A model generated the notes under the pieces. It was not told the origin of the DNA and did not search any database. It saw only the letters and a list, made by a program, of their open reading frames with translations. Positions 7,049-62,942 of a DNA stretch of 64,000 nt are shown here, in pieces. The stretch is from Mobula hypostoma. Lineage: Eukaryota. Position 1 is the stretch's first letter. Every line of letters starts with the position of its first letter. Made by a program: the position numbers and the translations under genes. The stretch is taken from positions 54,190,001-54,254,000 of the forward strand of contig NC_086097.1 of NCBI RefSeq assembly GCF_963921235.1, given 5' to 3'.

Positions 7049-10000
7049 CCTCCCTATGCGCTGTTCCTTATCGTGATGGGGAGGTTTGAGTGCCTTAGTG
7101 ATCCTGGGAGCTATGCCAGCTGGGACTTCAGTCCCTGGTAGGTTCAGCCTTGCTGGGCAGGTTCCAGGTGAAGGGCCAGATGAATACAGCACCTGGTCCT
7201 CCAGGCTGGGGGTTGGGCGTAGGGCCAGCAACCCTACCCTCTAAAATCTTTACCGCTACAGAAACCGAAACAAGGAGATTTATTGATGCCGGTGAGAGGA
7301 GTGGAGCAGAACTGGGTACAGAAATTATGATGGACGGAGATCAATGCCACCAGAACATCTCCGGACGGAGAGCTGATTTTCTTTCACCCAAAGAAACTAT
7401 CCATATTGGATGCTGAAGTGTTTGAACTTCATATCAAACTGGAAAGCTTGCACAGACTATTAAAGAGATGCATAACTACTGACTGCAGTTGCTTGGAATA
7501 CAAGAAACGCATTGGACAGATTCTGGAAAGCGACCCCTAGCATCTGGCGATACAATCATATGGTCAGGCCGCAAGGACAACCACCATTTTCAAGGTGTGG
7601 CACTCTTCATGGACAAGGATGCCTCGAGGGCCTTATTAGAATGGAACCCCATCTATGAGAGACTCCTGTATGTTTGTTTAAACTCTACGTTCGCTAAACT
7701 GTCCATAATTGTGGTATATGCACCTACTGAAGATGCGAAAGAAGAAACTAAAGATGAGTTTTATAACAGCCTTCAAGCTGCTGTAGAAAAGATCCCGAAA
7801 CACGATGTGCTCATTGTAATGGGGGACCTTAATGCAAGAGTTGGGAGTGAAAACAGTAATCGCGGAAGGCATGGCGTTGGAGTCATGAATGACAATGGTG
7901 AAAGACTTTGTGACTTTTGTGAAATGAACCGTCTTACAGTAGGAGGCACCATTTTCCAGCATAGAGAGATCTATAAACTCACGTGGAAATCCCCCGATGG
8001 GAAAACAGAGAGTCAGACTGACCATATCATTATCAACAACAAATGGAAGAGATCACTCAACAATGTTCGGGTAAAAAGGCCAGCGGATGTTGGCAGCGAT
8101 CACCATCTCCTTGTAGCAAAAGTGAAACTAAAATTGAGGAAAGTGAGAATGGGCTTAGGCAGAGGCCAACACTGCGATTCCAGCAAACTTCAAAACTTTG
8201 AGATGCAGAGAAAATTTACACTCAAACTTACAGACAGATTTAGCATACTTGGCAAAGATACTGACATGACAATCCACGACTTTAATAATGTGATGAAGGA
8301 ATCTAGTAAAAAGATCCTGAGATACCAAAAGAAACGGAAAGAAGAATGGATTAGTGAGACAACCTGAATGAAAATAACGAAAAGGAAAGAAACCAAGAAA
8401 AGGATGCTGAGTACAACTTCCTGTCGCCCGAAGGAGAGACTTGCTGCTGAATATGCCAGGAATGACAAGGATGTTAAACGAAGCTGCAGAAAGGACAAGC
8501 AACAGTATTTTGAGACACTTGCCTCAAAAGCTGAAGAAGCTGCAAAAAATATGGATGTGAGAACATTATACAAAATAACCAAGTGCATGAAGGGGAACTA
8601 TGGAAATAAGCATGATATCACTATAAAAGCAAAGGATGGCAATATTACCAAAAATGAGAAAGGAATAACCACCAGATGGAGAGAACATTTTGAAGCAGTT
8701 TTGAATAGACCAACACCTCGAGAAACCCCTGAAAGACCTTGATATCTCCACGGAACCACCTACAGATGAAGAAGTCTAGCAAGCCATCAAGAAAATGAAA
8801 TCAGGAAAGGCACCCAGAGAAGATGAGATAAGTGCAGAAATGCTTCAGGGAGGTGGCAGAGAAATGTGCCGTGTGCTGTGTCAAATCTTTAACACCATCT
8901 GGAAAAGTGAAGAAATGCCCGAGGAGTGGAAAACTGGACTTATTGTAAAACTGCCAAAGAAAGGAGATTTAAGTATATGCAACAACTGGAGAGGTGTTAC
9001 ACTCCTCTCAATTACAAGCAAAGTTTTCAGTCGCATCTTGTTAAATCGGCTCTCAGAGGTTGTAGAAGATATCATTTAGAAAGAACAAGCTGGCTTTAGA
9101 AAAGGTCAATCTTGCATAGACCATATATTCGTACTAAGACAAATTCTCAAACAATCTGCAGAGTGGAACAGCAATCTTTATGTTCTATTTGTGGACTTCG
9201 AAAAAGCATTTGACAGTACCCACCGAGAAACACTCTGGAAAATTTTAAGATACAGATTTCCCCAAAACATTGTCAACATTATTCAAATGATGTACAGTGA
9301 CTTTCAGTGCAAGGTGATTTGTGGAAAACAACTGACAGAAAGCTTCAGGGTATGCACAGGAGTTAAACAGGGATGTATACTATCACCTTTTCTCTTCATT
9401 TTAGCAATGGATTGGCTAATGAGGGAAACAATCACAGAAAAGAACTGGGGTATTCAATGGACACCTACCTCAACATTTGAAGACCTAGTTTTTGCTGATG
9501 ATATTAGTCTGCTAGCGAGTCGTCATTGTGACATTCAGGAGAAATCAGACAGTCTTACATCACATGCATCACAACTTGGGATGAACATTCAAGTGAGAAA
9601 AACAAAGATCATGAAGATGAACGCTTCCAACCTCCAAGCAGTAATGATCAATAATCAGCAAGTGGAAGAGGTAGATGAGTTCACGTACCTTGGGAGTAAA
9701 GTCAGCACTGATGGAGATAGTGGTAAGGATGTATTAGCAAGACTATCTAAAGCAAATCAAGCTCTTGGCAGCCTCAATGCATTTTGGAAATCCACACAAC
9801 TCAGACTTAACACCAAAATCAGAATTTTTAAAAGCAATGTCCTAAGCGTGCTGCTTTATGGAAGTGAAAGTTGGAAGATGACGAAAGATATCTGCAAGAA
9901 ACTTGACACGTTCCAGACAAAATGTCTACGACGTATCAAGAAGATCTTCTGGCCTGAGAAAATCAGAAACTAAGACTTGCTTACATCTTGCAATATGGAA

Positions 10001-10281
10001 TCAATCTCAGTTTGTGTGAAAAGAAGACGATGGAGATGGCTGAGCCATGTAATGATATTGCCAAATGATCAACGAGCAAAGGTAGCACTAAGGTGGACCC
10101 CACAGGGAAAGAAAAGTAGGGGCAGGCCCAAGATGACGTGGCGAAGATCTGTGGAAGTAGAACTGAAAGAAGTAGGCATGAACCGGGTAACGGCGAGCAG
10201 CAGAGCGAAAGACCGGCAGAAATGGAAGACCCTTGTGGATGTGTCATGTGCCAACTCGGTACTAAGGGTTCAGACGGACGG
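7049..10281 (+). mobile_element. Full-length, inactivated RTE-clade LINE (APE endonuclease and RT)
   Basis: Exact 12-bp TSD ATGATTGTAAAG (7037-7048 and 10282-10293) and a (GACG)n tail. APE motifs GIQETHW, YAPT, MGDLNA and SDH; RT motifs DFEKAFD, GVKQGCILSP, FADD and YLGS. Several stops and frameshifts. Confidence 0.95.
7327..10260 (+). pseudogene. Disrupted RTE endonuclease/reverse-transcriptase ORF
   Basis: ORF pieces 7150-7416, 7489-8367, 8368-8742, 8795-9079, 9191-9973 and 9977-10285 join into one RTE polyprotein. The start codon is approximate. Confidence 0.88.
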
Positions 10282-10679
10282 ATGATTGTAAAGAGGGAAA
10301 AAAATAATGAGTGTGAGGAAATTTTTATTTTCAGTAGGAGGTGATGGGTGACAGGAAGTGGTAACCTTGGTCTTGAAAATTGTTGAAGACAAAGCAGGAT
10401 ATTTGTAGCTATGTGGCTAAGTGTTGTAGTTAAAGCAGAGGAATGGAAGGAATTTAGGGTTTTGCTGGGGTGTTGGACGTAACTAGGTCAACAAGTCAGT
10501 TTGTTTCTCACTTAAACATTATTGACTGAATATAAATATTTCAATAACCTTCACATAGTCACAGTCTGAAAAATTATACCTTTGAAATATCCATTTCTAC
10601 TTATAATTTTTAAAATCGCACATTTCTGGATCGATTTTATCCTTAATGCAGTTTCAAACATTTGACATTTGTCATTGAG

Positions 10680-11240: not shown

Positions 11241-11639
11241 CAATGAGAAGTACTGCACTTGAGAGAATCTCCAATCCATCTCTTCTTACACAAGTTATCT
11301 CTAATCTTGTAGTTCTTTTCTAATCTACTTCATTTCAAAGAATACTAGATATGCCCCCAGTGACCACTTTATTAGGCACAGGAATGGAATCAGGTGTGGT
11401 CTTCAGCTGCTGTAGCTCATCCATTTCAAGTTTCAACCAGTTGTGCATCCAGAAATGCTTCTCTGCACTCCACTACTGTAACGCATGGTTATTGAAGTTA
11501 CTGTTGCCTTGCTGTCAAGCTTGAACCAGTCTGGCCATTCTCCTCAGACATTTCTCATCAACAAGGCATCTTTGCCCACAGAACTGCCACTCAGTAGATT
11601 TTTTTTTGTTTCTCACACCATTTTCTGGTGGACATGAAA

Positions 11640-12475
11640 AGTTCAAAGTAAGTTTATTATCAAAGTACATATACGTCACCATATACATCCGTGACATTCA
11701 TTTTCCTGCGGGCATACTCAATAAATCGAATAACCATAATAGAATCAAAGAAAGACCACACCAACAGGGCAGACAACCAATGTGCAAAACACAACAAACT
11801 ATGCAAATACAAAAAGAAAGAAAAAAAGGAAATAATAATAATCAATAAATAAGCAATAAATTAAGAGAACATGAGATGAAGAGTCCTTGAAAGTGTACTT
11901 CATAAAGTGTGCGAACTGTTCAGTGATGGAATGAGTGAAGTTGAATGAAGTTTATCCCCTCTAGTTCAGAAGTTCTGATGAATGAAGGGTAATAACTGTT
12001 CCTGAACTTGGTGGGGTGAGTCCTGAGGTTCCTGTACCTTCTTGCAGATGGCAGCAGTGAGAAGGCAGCGAGAATTAGGTGGTGGGGGTTCCTGATGACG
12101 GATGCTGCTTTCCTATGACATCACTTCATGTAGGGGTGCTCAATGGTGAGGAGGGCTTCAGCCATGATGAACTAGGCCATATCCATTACTCTTTGTGGGA
12201 TTCAAGGATGTTAGTGTTTCCATTCCAGACTGTGATTCAGCCAGTCACTATACTCTCCACCACACACCTATAGAAGTTTGTCGAAGTTTTACACGTCATG
12301 CCGAATCTTCGCAAACTCCTGAGGAAGTAGAAACGTTACTGTGCTTTCTTCGTAATTGTACTTGTGTGTTGGGTCCAGGACAGATCCACTGAAATGATAA
12401 CACTGAGGTACTTAAATCCCAGGAGGTCAGAAGTTTCAGAGGACAGGTCCTTTGAAATGATAACACTAAGGAATA
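11640..12475 (-). mobile_element. Rex1/Babar LINE 3' fragment
   Basis: The minus strand encodes the LLPS.RRYR-type C-terminus. The tail aagttcaaagtaagtttattatcaaagtac lies at the left end. Confidence 0.8.
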
Positions 12476-20186: not shown

Positions 20187-20451
20187 CACACATCAAAGTT
20201 GCTGGTGAACGCAGCAGGCCAGGCAACATCTGTAGGAAGATGTACAGTCGACGTTTCGGGCCGAGACCCTTCGTCAGGCCTAACTGAAGGAAGAGCTAGT
20301 AAGAGATTTGAAAGTGGGAGGAGGAGGGGGAGATCCAAAATGATAGGAGAAGACTGTACCTCTTCCTAGAGATGCTGCCCGGCCTGCTGCGTTCACCAGC
20401 AACTTTGATGTGTGCTGCTTGAATTTCCAGCATCTGCAGATTTCCTCGTGT
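20187..20451. mobile_element. Penelope-derived inverted pLTR insert with 15-bp TSD
   Basis: Exact TSD AAAAGTTCTTGGCAA (20172-20186 and 20452-20466), inverted arms, and a hammerhead on the minus strand. Confidence 0.9.
20246..20281 (-). ncRNA. Minimal hammerhead ribozyme motif
   Basis: Minus strand reads aggc-CTGACGA-A-GGGT-ctcg-GCCC-GAAACGTC-gact. Confidence 0.7.
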
Positions 20452-36439: not shown

Positions 36440-36656
36440 AATGAATATCCGTCACATTATTGTTTGTTTTTTCTTGTATTTGCACAGTTTGCCTTCTTTT
36501 GCACATTGGTTGCTTTGTCAATCTTTGTGTGTGGTTTTTCATTGATTCTATTGTATTCCCTTGTTTTACCTTGAATTCCTTCAAGAAAATAAATCTCAGG
36601 GTAGTATATCGTGATATAGACGTACTTTGATAATAAATTTACTTTGCACTTTTGAA
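36440..36656 (+). mobile_element. Rex1-type 3' UTR fragment
   Basis: aatctcagggtagtatat...tactttgataataaatttacttt tail. Confidence 0.6.
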
Positions 36657-56994: not shown

Positions 56995-57620
56995 CAAATC
57001 AAATCATGTTTAATTATCATTCAAACCATACATGGATACAGTCAAACCAGACAGTGTTCCTCTGGGGCCAAGGTGCATTACTTTCAAAACAGCGAGCAAG
57101 AAAGAAAACACACATTGTTACACAAAAAACACATGTTCTATCCAAGCCCCTGAGCGACATGCAAATTGATGGTACAGCTCCCGGCAATCCAGCCTGTCAT
57201 TCCGATGTCTTCAAGTAGCAGGCAGCAGGACAGTCTGCACCCAGATCAGCTCCTCCGAACCCAATCCAGCCCATCTGCTGGCTTCTCCTTCTTCAGCCTG
57301 AGCGCCGGCTTTTCCTTTTCCAGCCCAAGCACCGGCTTCTCCTTCTCTGGCCCAACCACCAGCTTCCCTCTCTCTGACCCAAGCACTGGCTTCTCCTTCT
57401 CTGATCCAATGGCCAATTTCTTCTTTATCAACTTGTCAATCGGCTCCTTTGACGCCCCAGGCAGCTGCTCTGAACAGCGAATAACTGATGCAGTAGACCT
57501 GCTGTACCCACTGTTTGTGGAGTCCAATACAGTCTTACAATCATAAAAAATACATTTTAAAACAAAAGTACACCTTTGGTTGACTCCCGAGGGGCCACTG
57601 CATTTGAACTCGCTGCCATA
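56995..57620 (-). mobile_element. Non-autonomous element with a LINE-type tail and an internal minisatellite
   Basis: The tail at 56995-57075 resembles 978-1050. No RT coding sequence. Confidence 0.45.
57268..57429. repeat. 27-bp minisatellite, 6 diverged units
   Basis: Units start at 57268, 57295, 57322, 57349, 57376 and 57403. Consensus is approximately AGCCCAAGCACCGGCTTCTCCTTCTCT. Confidence 0.85.
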
Positions 57621-58285: not shown

Positions 58286-58455
58286 GGAACACACATCAAA
58301 GTTGCTGGTGAACGCAGCAGGCCAGGCAGCATCTCTAGGAAGAGGTACAGTCGATGTACCTCATCCTAGAGATGCTGCCTGGCCTGCTGCGTTCACCAGC
58401 AACTTTGATGTGTGTGTTTCTTGAATTTCCAGCAACTGCAGAATTCCTGTTGTTT
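58286..58455. mobile_element. PLE-derived palindromic insert with 13-bp TSD
   Basis: 61-bp arms at 58289-58349 and 58355-58415 (1 mismatch, 5-nt loop). TSD GGAAGATGATTAT (58273-58285 and 58456-58468). Confidence 0.9.
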
Positions 58456-58549
58456 GGAAGATGATTATAGTTGTTGGAAGTTAATTACATTCCTCAGGAT
58501 CTCAGTACAGGAGATCCCCAGTTATATCTTAGGCCATACCATCAACAAC

Positions 58550-59700
58550 AACTTGGTGTTAACATTTAAGATGACCTGTACTGGGCCCAGCACGTAAGTA
58601 CAATTATGAAGAAAGCACAACAGTGCCTCTGCTTCCTTAGGAGTTTGCAAAGATTTGACATGACATCTAGAACTTGGACAAACTTCTATAGATGTAGAAT
58701 GGAGAGTATATTGACTGGCTGCATTGCGGCCTGCTATGGAAACATTCAGAACATACTCAATGCCCTTGAATGGAAAAATCTGACAAAAAGTAGTGGACAC
58801 AGCCTGGTCCATCACAGGTAAAGCCCTCCCCACCATTGAGCACATCTACACCAAGCATTGTTGCAGGAAAACAGCATCCATCATCAGGGACCCCCACCAC
58901 CCAGGTCATGCTCTCTTTTCGCTGCTGCCATCAGGGAAAAGGGTGAGGAGCCTCAGGATTCACACCACCAGGTTCAGGGACAGTTACTACCCCTCAACCA
59001 TCAGGCTCTTGAATCAAAGGAGATAACTTCACTCAACTTGACTTGCCCATCATTGAAATGTTCCCACAACCTCTGGACTAATTTTCAAGAATTCTTCATC
59101 TCATGTTCTCAATATTTATTATTTACTTATTGACGATGATGATGATTATTTATGTTATTATTATTATTCCTTTCTTTTTGTACTTGCACACTTCGTTGTC
59201 TTTTGTACGCTGGTTGTACACCCAGTTGGTGCAGTTTTTCATTGATTCTTTTATGATTACAGTCGGCCCTCCTTATCCACGGCGGGGGGGGGTCCCTGAA
59301 CCAATCCCCCGCGGATACCAACAAACGCGGATGCTCAAGTCCATTATATAAAATGGCGTAGTATTTGCATATAACTGATGCACATCCTCCCGTATACTTT
59401 AAATCATCTCTAGATTACTTATAATACCTAATACAATGTAAATGCTGTGTAAATAGTTGTTATACTGTATTGTTTAGGGAATAATGACAAGAAAAAATGC
59501 TCGAACAATGAGTGCTGGAGAGAGAACTTCCGGGTTTCCCCGATCTGCGGTTGGTTGAATCCGCACATGTGGAACCTGCAGATAAGGAGGGCCGACTGTA
59601 TTGGATTTATTGAGTATGCCTGCAAAAAATGAAACTCAGGGTTGTAAATGGTGACATACAGCATATGTACTTTGATAATAAATTTACTTTGAGCTTTGAG
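58550..59700 (+). mobile_element. Rex1/Babar LINE 3' fragment interrupted by a MITE
   Basis: KKAQQCLCFLRSL..MESILTGCI..HPGHALFSLLPSG. Tail tactttgataataaatttacttt. Confidence 0.85.
59260..59598. mobile_element. Tigger/pogo-type MITE resembling MER2
   Basis: Perfect 18-bp TIR CAGTCGGCCCTCCTTATC and TA target duplication (59258-59259 and 59599-59600). The interior matches my recollection of the MER2 consensus. Confidence 0.85.
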
Positions 59701-59840
59701 GGGTGGGTGCCTGGTATGCAGTGCCTGGGGTGGTGGTAGAGGAAGATACATCAGGGAATTTTGAGACTTTTAGATAGGCACATGGATGTGAGGAAAATGA
59801 AGGGATATGGACATTGTGTAGGCATATAAGGATTATTTTA

Positions 59841-60622
59841 CAAACACTATAAAATCTGCAGATGCTGGAAGTCCAACGTATCTCACACAAAATGCTGGAG
59901 GAACTCAGCAGGCCAGACAGCATCTACGGAAAAGAGTAAACAGTCAACGTTTTGGGCCGAGACCATTCATCAGGATTGGAAAGGAAGGGGAGAAGTCACA
60001 GTAAGAATAGTTGGAAATTGATTGGTGAAAGAAATGAAGGGTTGGGGAAGGGGGAATCTGGTAGGAGAGGACAGAAGACCATGGAAGAAAGGGAAGAGGG
60101 AGGTGCACCAGAGGGAGATGATGGGCAGGTAAGCTGATGAGGTGAGAGAGGTAAAGAGGAATGGGGAATGGTGAAGGGAGGGGGACAATTACCAGACGTT
60201 CAAGAAATCAATGTTAATGCCTCCGGTATATTGGTGAGACCCGATGTAGATTGGGAGACCACTTCACTGAGCACCTATGCTCAGTCCGCCGGAAAAAGCA
60301 GGATCTCCTGGTGGTCACCCATTTCAATTCTACTTCCCATTCCCAGTCTGATACGTCAGGCCATGGCCTCCTCTACCTTCGTGATGAGGCTACAGTCAGG
60401 TCAGAGGAGAAGCACCTTATATTTCGTCTGGATTGCATCCAACTTAGTGGCTTCTTGCCCTTCCCTTTACTTCACCCTCTCCCTCTCCTGGTTTCACCTG
60501 TCACCTGCCACTTTGTACTTCTTCCTCCCCTCCACCCATCGCCTTACTCTGACTTCTCCCCATCCTTTCCAGTCCTGAATAAGGGTCTTGGCCCAAAACG
60601 TCTCCTGTTTACTCTTTTCCAG
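59841..60622. mobile_element. Penelope insert (inverted pLTR and GIY-YIG remnant) inside a CR1 3' end
   Basis: GDHFTEHLCSVRR..EEKHLIFRL and two oppositely oriented hammerhead remnants. TSD GGATTATTTTA (59830-59840 and 60623-60633). CR1 flanks at 59700-59830 and 60634-60705. Confidence 0.85.
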
Positions 60623-61374
60623 GGATTATTTTAGTTGGCTATCTGATTATTAATTTATCTGGTTAAGGTCTGTTTCTGTGCTGTACTGTTCTATGTTCTA
60701 TTTTCTAGAATAGATTTTAACACAAAGGCAATGAAAAGTTTGAAGGATGGTATTGTATGTTGAAGGTTTTCCTTTTCTCATCTTCATGTCAATTGCTCTC
60801 TTACACATAAGCACACACTATTGCAGATGATTTTATCTACATATAGTATTTTGCAACCTCTAAGGTGCTACATTAATGCAATTTGTTGTTACCTTGTCAT
60901 TTAAATTTAATTTCAAGACCACTATGTCTAAACCCTCCACTTTTTCTAAAATTTCACCCTGGTTGTCCCGTATCTAAATCTGAATGACAAGGGATTTTCT
61001 CCGTTAATTACGTGCCACTTCCAAGTCAGTTGTCTGTGAAGCCATACCGTTCACAATTTGGTTCCCTTTCTGATCCTGAGCTGAGTGTTGGACTGTTCAT
61101 CTGTGGCACCTCTAAGGCATTTTTATTTTCATCTAATCGACTCTTCCGCTATATCCCCCTTTCCTGTCAAATTCTCCTCAAACCAAAGGCTGAGCTATTC
61201 CAGTGCACTAGTGGCCAGCTTCCTTTATTTTGCCCCGGTCAAAGCTGAACCCTGGGGCTCAAACCTGATTTTTGTCAAGTCCTATTCACCCACCTTATTG
61301 GGCTTGCTGACCAACCATTACTCCAATCCTCCTCCATTCCATACCTCCAAGGACTGTCCCATTCTAACAACGTT

Positions 61375-62942
61375 CAAAATTCAAAACAGATTTTATTATC
61401 AAAGTACGTATATATCATCATATACAACCATGAGATTCTTTTTTTTTCAGGTCATACTCACTAAATCTATAAAATAGTAACTGGAACAGAATCAGTGAAA
61501 GGTCAACCAGAGTGCAGGAGACAACAAACAGTACAAATGTAAAAAGAAGAAATAATAATATAAATAAATAAACAATAAATATCAAGAACATAAGACAAAG
61601 AGTCCTTGAAATTGAGTCCACTGGTTGTGGGAACATGTCAGCGACAGGGCAAGTAAAGTTAAGTGAAGTTATCCCCTTTTGTTCAAGAGCCTGATGGTTG
61701 AGGGGTAATAACTGTTCCTGAACCCGGTAGTGTGAGTCCTGAGGCTCCTGTACCTCCTTCCTGATGGCAGCAGTGAGAAGTGAGCATGTCTTGAGTGGTG
61801 GGGGCTGCTGATGATGGATGCTGTTTTCCTGTGATAGTGTTTCACGTAGATGTGATCAATGGTTGGGAGGCCTTTACCCACAATGGACTGGACCGTATCC
61901 ACTACCTTACATTGATTTTCTATTCAAGGGCATTGGTGTATCCACACCAGGCTGTGACGCAGCCAGTCAGTACACTCTCCGCTACACATCTATAGAAGTT
62001 TGTCGAAGTTCTAGATGCCATGCTGAATCTTCGCAAACTCCTAATGAAGTAGGGGCGCTGCAGTGCTCTCTTCATAACTGGGCCCAGGACAGGTCATCTG
62101 AAATGACAACACCAAGGAATTTCAAGTTGTTAACCCTCTCCACATCTGATAATCCAATAAGGACTGGCTCATGGACCTCCAATTTCCTTCTCCTGAACTC
62201 TATGTAATCCTCAGGTTCAGCCGCCAGTGTTGGTCTAGGAGAAGACACTCTGCAGCCCGCCAAACTTGTGAAATTTCATTTGTGTGGATGTTGCATGATG
62301 TTTTCTGCTGTTACAAATCAGTACCACAAAATAACAAACACTACACCATATGCAATTAAAGGATTTAGCTTTATAATTCTTAATTTGACTGGAGGGTTAG
62401 TAAAGAAAACAAAAAGAAAGAGAGCCCATTTCAATGAAACAGTCTAACGTGCACATTGGAGATTACGATTTTCCCGTCTGTTCATTCTCCATCGATTTCC
62501 TCCAGGCGTCGGCGACTCCCAACCCCATTACACGTCCACTCAGTCCTGTAGTCTATGACCTCTCTGATCTGGCATCTTCTCTCTTCATCTTCCGCTGAAC
62601 AAAAGCCCGTGAATACCTCGCTCTCGGGCACGCAAGAAAGCAAAACACTCCCCTCGTTGGATGCGCACATTTCCAAGCCCCCGGTGGCTCTAGTCATAAC
62701 CCAAATACTGCTGCTACAGAGAAACCATTACATTAGCAGTGAGACCTTTCCCAGGGCCTTACATCTGTAATCAGTTCCTTGGTCTTGTGACATTGAGTAG
62801 GAGGTTGTTGTTATGACCATTCAGCCATATTTTCAATCTCCCTCCTATATGCTGATACGTCACCACCTTTGATTCGGCCTATGGCAGTGCTGTCATCAGC
62901 AAACTTGAATGTGGTATTAGAGCTATGCTTAGCCACACAGTC
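61375..62942 (-). mobile_element. Rex1/Babar LINE fragment interrupted by a solo LTR
   Basis: LLPSGRRYRSLRTHTT, VERVNNLKFLGV and a KFADD remnant. Confidence 0.85.
62203..62763. mobile_element. Solo LTR (561 bp)
   Basis: TGTAA...TTACA termini, flanks TCTA and TCTG. Rex1 sequence resumes on both sides. Confidence 0.72.

Follow-up and report, generated by a model that had tools for sequence, protein, structure and literature searches.

A miniature Tigger-type transposon in a LINE tail of a probable cartilaginous fish and a possible horizontal spread of the MER2 family

How would a short transposon reminiscent of MER2, a human repeat that was among the earliest to be named, come to lie in what is probably the genome of a ray or shark? 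The question is raised by a single element in a stretch of 64 kb (hereafter the window, meaning the whole DNA analysed), and it bears on a wider one, namely where the DNA transposons came from that swept through the genomes of early placentals. The reading we favour, and to which we give a probability of roughly two in three, is that the element is a miniature pogo/Tigger transposon of MER2 type, whose family entered both the cartilaginous-fish lineage and the placentals by horizontal transfer. A near-identical sister of MER2 in a ray would mean that a known human repeat family had an origin outside its present hosts, and would furthermore provide a second, better-preserved sample of that family.

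The element occupies positions 59260 to 59598 (339 bp) and carries a TA on each side, the left one (59258-59259) being the target site and the right one (59599-59600) its duplicate. Its terminal inverted repeats (TIRs), located at 59260-59282 on the plus strand and at 59576-59598 on the minus strand, match each other perfectly over 18 bp, namely up to 59277 in the left arm and from 59581 to 59598 in the right one, and with the TA included the arms are 100% complementary across 20 nt. Allowing for three transitions, at arm positions 19, 20 and 22, extends the arms to 23 bp, and from position 24 onward the likeness is gone. As these three transitions fall within two adjacent would-be CpGs and fit the decay of two adjacent methylated sites, the original TIR was likely 23 bp long. 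Perfect inverted pairs of at least 18 bp with their arms 60-3000 bp apart occur four times in the window, and the pair described here is the sole one starting with TA; when the window was shuffled by dinucleotides, under the same 60-bp minimum distance between arms, any such pair appeared in 1 of 50 shuffles. A perfect 34-bp inverted pair at 20187-20414, about 230 bp across, lacks TA flanks. No other TA-flanked pair of Tigger-type ends and no second copy of the element were found within the 64 kb. No reading frame of the element stays open for more than 56 codons, and at 339 bp it is a short, non-coding unit.

The site of insertion is the tail of a LINE. Its 3' part to the left of the element (58551-59257, plus strand) consists of a broken ORF2 C-terminus, recognizable by a PF09004 piece at 58570-58818 (E 1.3e-7), followed by a 3' tail. 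The same domain follows the reverse transcriptase in the longer LINE copy of the window, and over 437 bp the left part shows 65.9% similarity to the RVT_1 and PF09004 containing LINE near 53 kb. With this order of domains, RVT_1 and then PF09004, we take the host LINE to be of the Rex1/Babar type. To the right of the element the tail resumes at 59601-59699 (plus strand), in register with three paralogues, which are found at 11638-12403 (minus strand; 79.1% identity, K2P 0.25), at 61374-62116 (minus strand; 82.0% identity, K2P 0.21) and, as a short tail, at 36456-36652 (plus strand; 76.3% identity, K2P 0.29). The element is absent from all three paralogous tails examined in the window, and once it is removed together with one TA, each of the three aligns over the junction with gaps of at most 1-2 bases. 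These empty sites show that insertion duplicated the TA and that the interrupted LINE copy predates the element. An earlier note on this DNA had described a 339-bp element with perfect 18-bp TIRs and a TA duplication, nested in a LINE tail and younger than that LINE copy; direct sequence comparison and the three empty tails bear out both parts of this description.

The kind of genome that harbours the element can be read from the LINE proteins of the window. For a CR1-type ORF, the best named relatives among 120 listed of 184, most of which are nameless, come from Chiloscyllium (68%), Hypanus (64%) and Callorhinchus (67%), the next named ones being from a turtle (52%) and a crane (55%). For the ORF with RVT_1 and PF09004, the top identity among 120 listed of 561 belongs to Pristis pectinata (65%), and all named relatives are fishes. 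The genome had been called apparently non-mammalian in the earlier note, and these relatives agree with that call and point to a cartilaginous fish. An autonomous partner of the element would combine a CENP-B-type HTH with a DD29-36D transposase. Outside the element, none of 384 frames of at least 55 codons matched a transposase or host-gene family above the curated cut-off, and the matches above it were exclusively to LINE domains; no tRNA was found in the window.

Several other features of the window deserve mention in their own right. A fairly intact LINE at 7483-10282 encodes an endonuclease (PF14529/PF03372) and a reverse transcriptase (PF00078, PF20049), the long frames of which are broken by a few stops, and appears younger than the other LINEs of the window. 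At 57154-57620, both strands bear long open frames over a tandem array of ~30-bp units, with no Pfam match. Closer to the insertion, a near-perfect palindrome (58289-58415) has 61-nt arms that are 98% complementary and separated by 5 nt; the arms have a 25-nt piece in common with 59901-59925, beside an element at about 59928-60620 with 78-nt inverted ends (87%) and a broken frame (60218-60631) without a Pfam match. The palindrome may be a collapsed copy of an inverted-ended element of this kind, and by eye the broken frame resembles what we take to be the GIY-YIG endonuclease end of a Penelope-type element.

The interior of the 339-bp element is partitioned into GC-rich flanks and an AT-rich core. 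The left subterminal region (59274-59333) is GC-rich, folds into a hairpin at about 59274-59317 (-11.7 kcal/mol), and contains copies of a motif from the inner TIR at 59275 (+), 59309 (-) and 59325 (-). A non-coding core with 25-38% GC follows at 59340-59499, and the right subterminal region (59539-59575) displays degenerate copies of the motif at 59543 and 59559 as well as a weak hairpin. Within one mismatch, the motif occurs four times in the element, one of them being the seed, against a mean of 0.23 in shuffles, none of 500 of which reached four; this test is biased, as the motif was drawn from the element itself, and because the motif is partly self-complementary a count at two mismatches counts copies twice. 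Likely, these copies are additional, putative binding sites for a transposase. The element folds strongly (z -5.8), as TIRs and subterminal hairpins would lead one to expect. An RNA gene or microRNA was considered and rejected, as no Rfam family fell on the element at E values up to 5 in a search over 58500-60500, where the sole match (RMST_8, E 1.4) was at chance level and outside the element. Furthermore, the observed/expected ratio of CpG, which is 0.20 in the host LINE and 0.27 across the window, rises to 0.87 in the element, a value reached by just 1 of 188 equally long tiles. The CpGs kept in this way fit a relative youth of the element, although its GC-rich ends may partly account for their abundance.

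Its assignment to the Tigger type, as a non-autonomous MITE, had been proposed in the earlier note and is sustained by the TA duplication, the type of TIR and the 339 bp of non-coding sequence. Tigger elements are characterized by TA target sites and TIRs of 8-33 bp, about 20 bp being usual (PMC9219625); the name itself covers a polyphyletic assemblage (PMC7325037). We regard the element as a real, native and dead Tigger-type MITE.

What points further, to MER2 in particular, is the core, which probably follows MER2 closely over a long continuous interior, as the earlier note also had it. The element presumably departs from human MER2 in its terminal repeats, in how the loop of the left hairpin is oriented and over ~35 bp ahead of the right subterminal region; with such differences it would represent a sister family of MER2 and not a copy of it. 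The RepeatMasker row reproduced in PMC1914374 gives 345 bp for the human consensus, and the class assigned to MER2 in Repbase is Mariner/Tc1, according to PMC5753468. In the literature within reach, which left out most subscription papers as well as the Repbase and Dfam entries, we found no report of MER2 outside mammals, and the name MER2 is absent from the supplement of PMC9219625. Searches of plasmid and phage collections by BLAST gave no match to the element, and an exact 24-base pattern of the core had none in viral, prokaryotic or metagenome contigs (0, 0 and 0), collections poor in animal DNA whose silence weighs little either way.

The alternative that survives best, and which we still hold to be unlikely, is that the element is a Tigger-type MITE of the usual sort, native to rays, whose likeness to MER2 is overstated, being confined to ends, size and AT-rich interior. 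It gains from the likeness being putative, and it is opposed by the extent of that likeness, which would cover a long continuous interior beyond the ends. As for size, the proximity of 339 to 345 bp is a weak match since many MITEs are of similar length; for instance, Tigger-like MITEs of 270-800 bp at TA sites are described for an insect in PMC4678618, and ends and size are thus not diagnostic. As for the ends, a comparison by eye with all 383 elements in Table S1 of PMC9219625, in which a closer row may be missed, detected no identical TIR (0/383), including no autonomous partner with such ends. The nearest ones belong to the ant Aphaenogaster fulva (19/23) and to three aphids and Strongyloides (18/23), which tells in favour of an ordinary MITE inasmuch as unrelated invertebrate Tiggers come this close; the five chondrichthyan TIRs of the table match at about half of the positions, likewise by eye. 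In the tree of the same paper, of which the extracted text conveys adjacency only, the aphid and Strongyloides elements adjoin human TIGGER7 and lie close to TIGGER2, a placement that we count for our own reading.

Should the identity to MER2 be as high as supposed, horizontal transfer would explain it best, and a single copy gives neither its direction, nor its date, nor its route. Transfers that involve mammals are rare, mammals or birds taking part in 24 of 975 events (PMC7070016), and this rarity counts against our reading. The Tc1/mariner content amounts to 2.30% in rays, where it expanded at least once, versus 0.14% in sharks (PMC12361510 and its preprint). This contrast fits lineage-specific invasions.

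A second alternative is vertical descent, in which the last common ancestor of jawed vertebrates would already have carried the family, which then stayed active and changed slowly in both lineages. We find this improbable, even though cartilaginous fishes evolve slowly, which counts for it; fishes and mammals split over 400 million years ago. Also in its favour, Tigger elements are present in almost all vertebrate classes according to PMC9219625 and PMC7386202, and for the related MER6 a vertical origin within mammals is argued in PMC6887750. Against it, the burst of MER2, represented by 8,377 human fragments with a median divergence of 18.5% (5th to 95th percentile 13.7-24.2%) and dated near the placental splits in PMC1914374, is far younger than the split of fishes and mammals. 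Furthermore, LINE copies around the element differ by K2P 0.21-0.29 within one and the same genome, which also counts against vertical descent.

The weakest alternative, a contaminated or chimeric contig into which human DNA was assembled, is very improbable, even though the supposed resemblance to a human repeat speaks for it: the element is bounded exactly by its TIRs, it has a TA duplication, and the fish-type LINE tail around it runs on in register on both sides, a clean TIR-to-TIR insertion that upholds the earlier note in its argument against human contamination, and a typical human copy (13.7-24.2% diverged) would keep 18/18 arm matches in less than 1% of cases, by hand arithmetic that assumes identical ancestral arms.

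Turning back to horizontal transfer, a course of events can be outlined. Pogo/Tigger transposases bind the ends of their elements and move them by cut-and-paste into a TA, which is duplicated by repair. Here, a transposase supplied in trans by an autonomous relative elsewhere would have bound the ends of the element, excised it and inserted it at the TA of the LINE tail, where repair would have duplicated the target. Thereafter, the element would have sat in methylated DNA long enough for some of its CpGs to decay, and yet it would be younger than the LINE. As regards its arrival, we would rather envisage that rays and mammals were each invaded independently from a third reservoir, probably an invertebrate one, because the closest listed TIRs come from invertebrates; a direct jump from mammal to fish seems less likely. 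On a larger scale, MER2 could mark a single arrival of a roaming Tigger lineage which, nearly unchanged, also invaded rays and arthropods; the ray genome would then retain copies of lesser age and perhaps the autonomous partner too. For and against this picture we see the chances as evenly poised.

If this larger picture is true, one could test from what source, when and by what vector MER2 invaded the mammalian germ line, and a case between mammals and cartilaginous fishes would be at hand that is much cleaner than the published ones. The process as such is already known, and a case, not a mechanism, would be added. The Tigger transfers between Eutheria and Chondrichthyes claimed in PMC9219625 have distances of 0.65-0.70 and all run via one mongoose, Helogale parvula. 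In Tables S2 and S3 of that paper, the host-gene distances of this species are ~0.9 to everything, with RPL3 at 0.925 even to hyena. We considered these transfers as instances of the same event and rejected them, as such distances suggest faulty host-gene rows; on the evidence of these tables, transfers via H. parvula in that paper, the mammal-shark ones included, look doubtful.

Among known systems, the transfer proposed here would be of the same kind as several published ones in which near-identical cut-and-paste elements occur in distant animals. For instance, Table S2 of PMC9219625 lists a Tigger distance of 0.074 between lamprey and cat versus 0.28-0.35 for host genes, Mariner_Tbel, shared by ants, tree shrew and hedgehog, has consensus identities of 95-98% (PMC3517439), and Chapaev elements are a further case of transfer into mammals (PMC4079192). 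These cases involve elements other than MER2 and are built on computed consensus identities and surveyed distributions, whereas the likeness to MER2 in our case is a putative one. With the Tigger family, as portrayed in PMC9219625 and PMC7386202, the element shares the TA duplication, the TIR of 18-23 bp and the kind of start, but it is devoid of a transposase and hence of a place on the transposase tree. Closest in build are the human MER2, MER2B and MER8, listed as non-autonomous TcMar-Tigger elements in PMC5753468, which resemble it in size, TA site and non-coding nature. Those families are human, in contrast to our element, which resides in a cartilaginous-fish-like host and keeps most of its CpGs.
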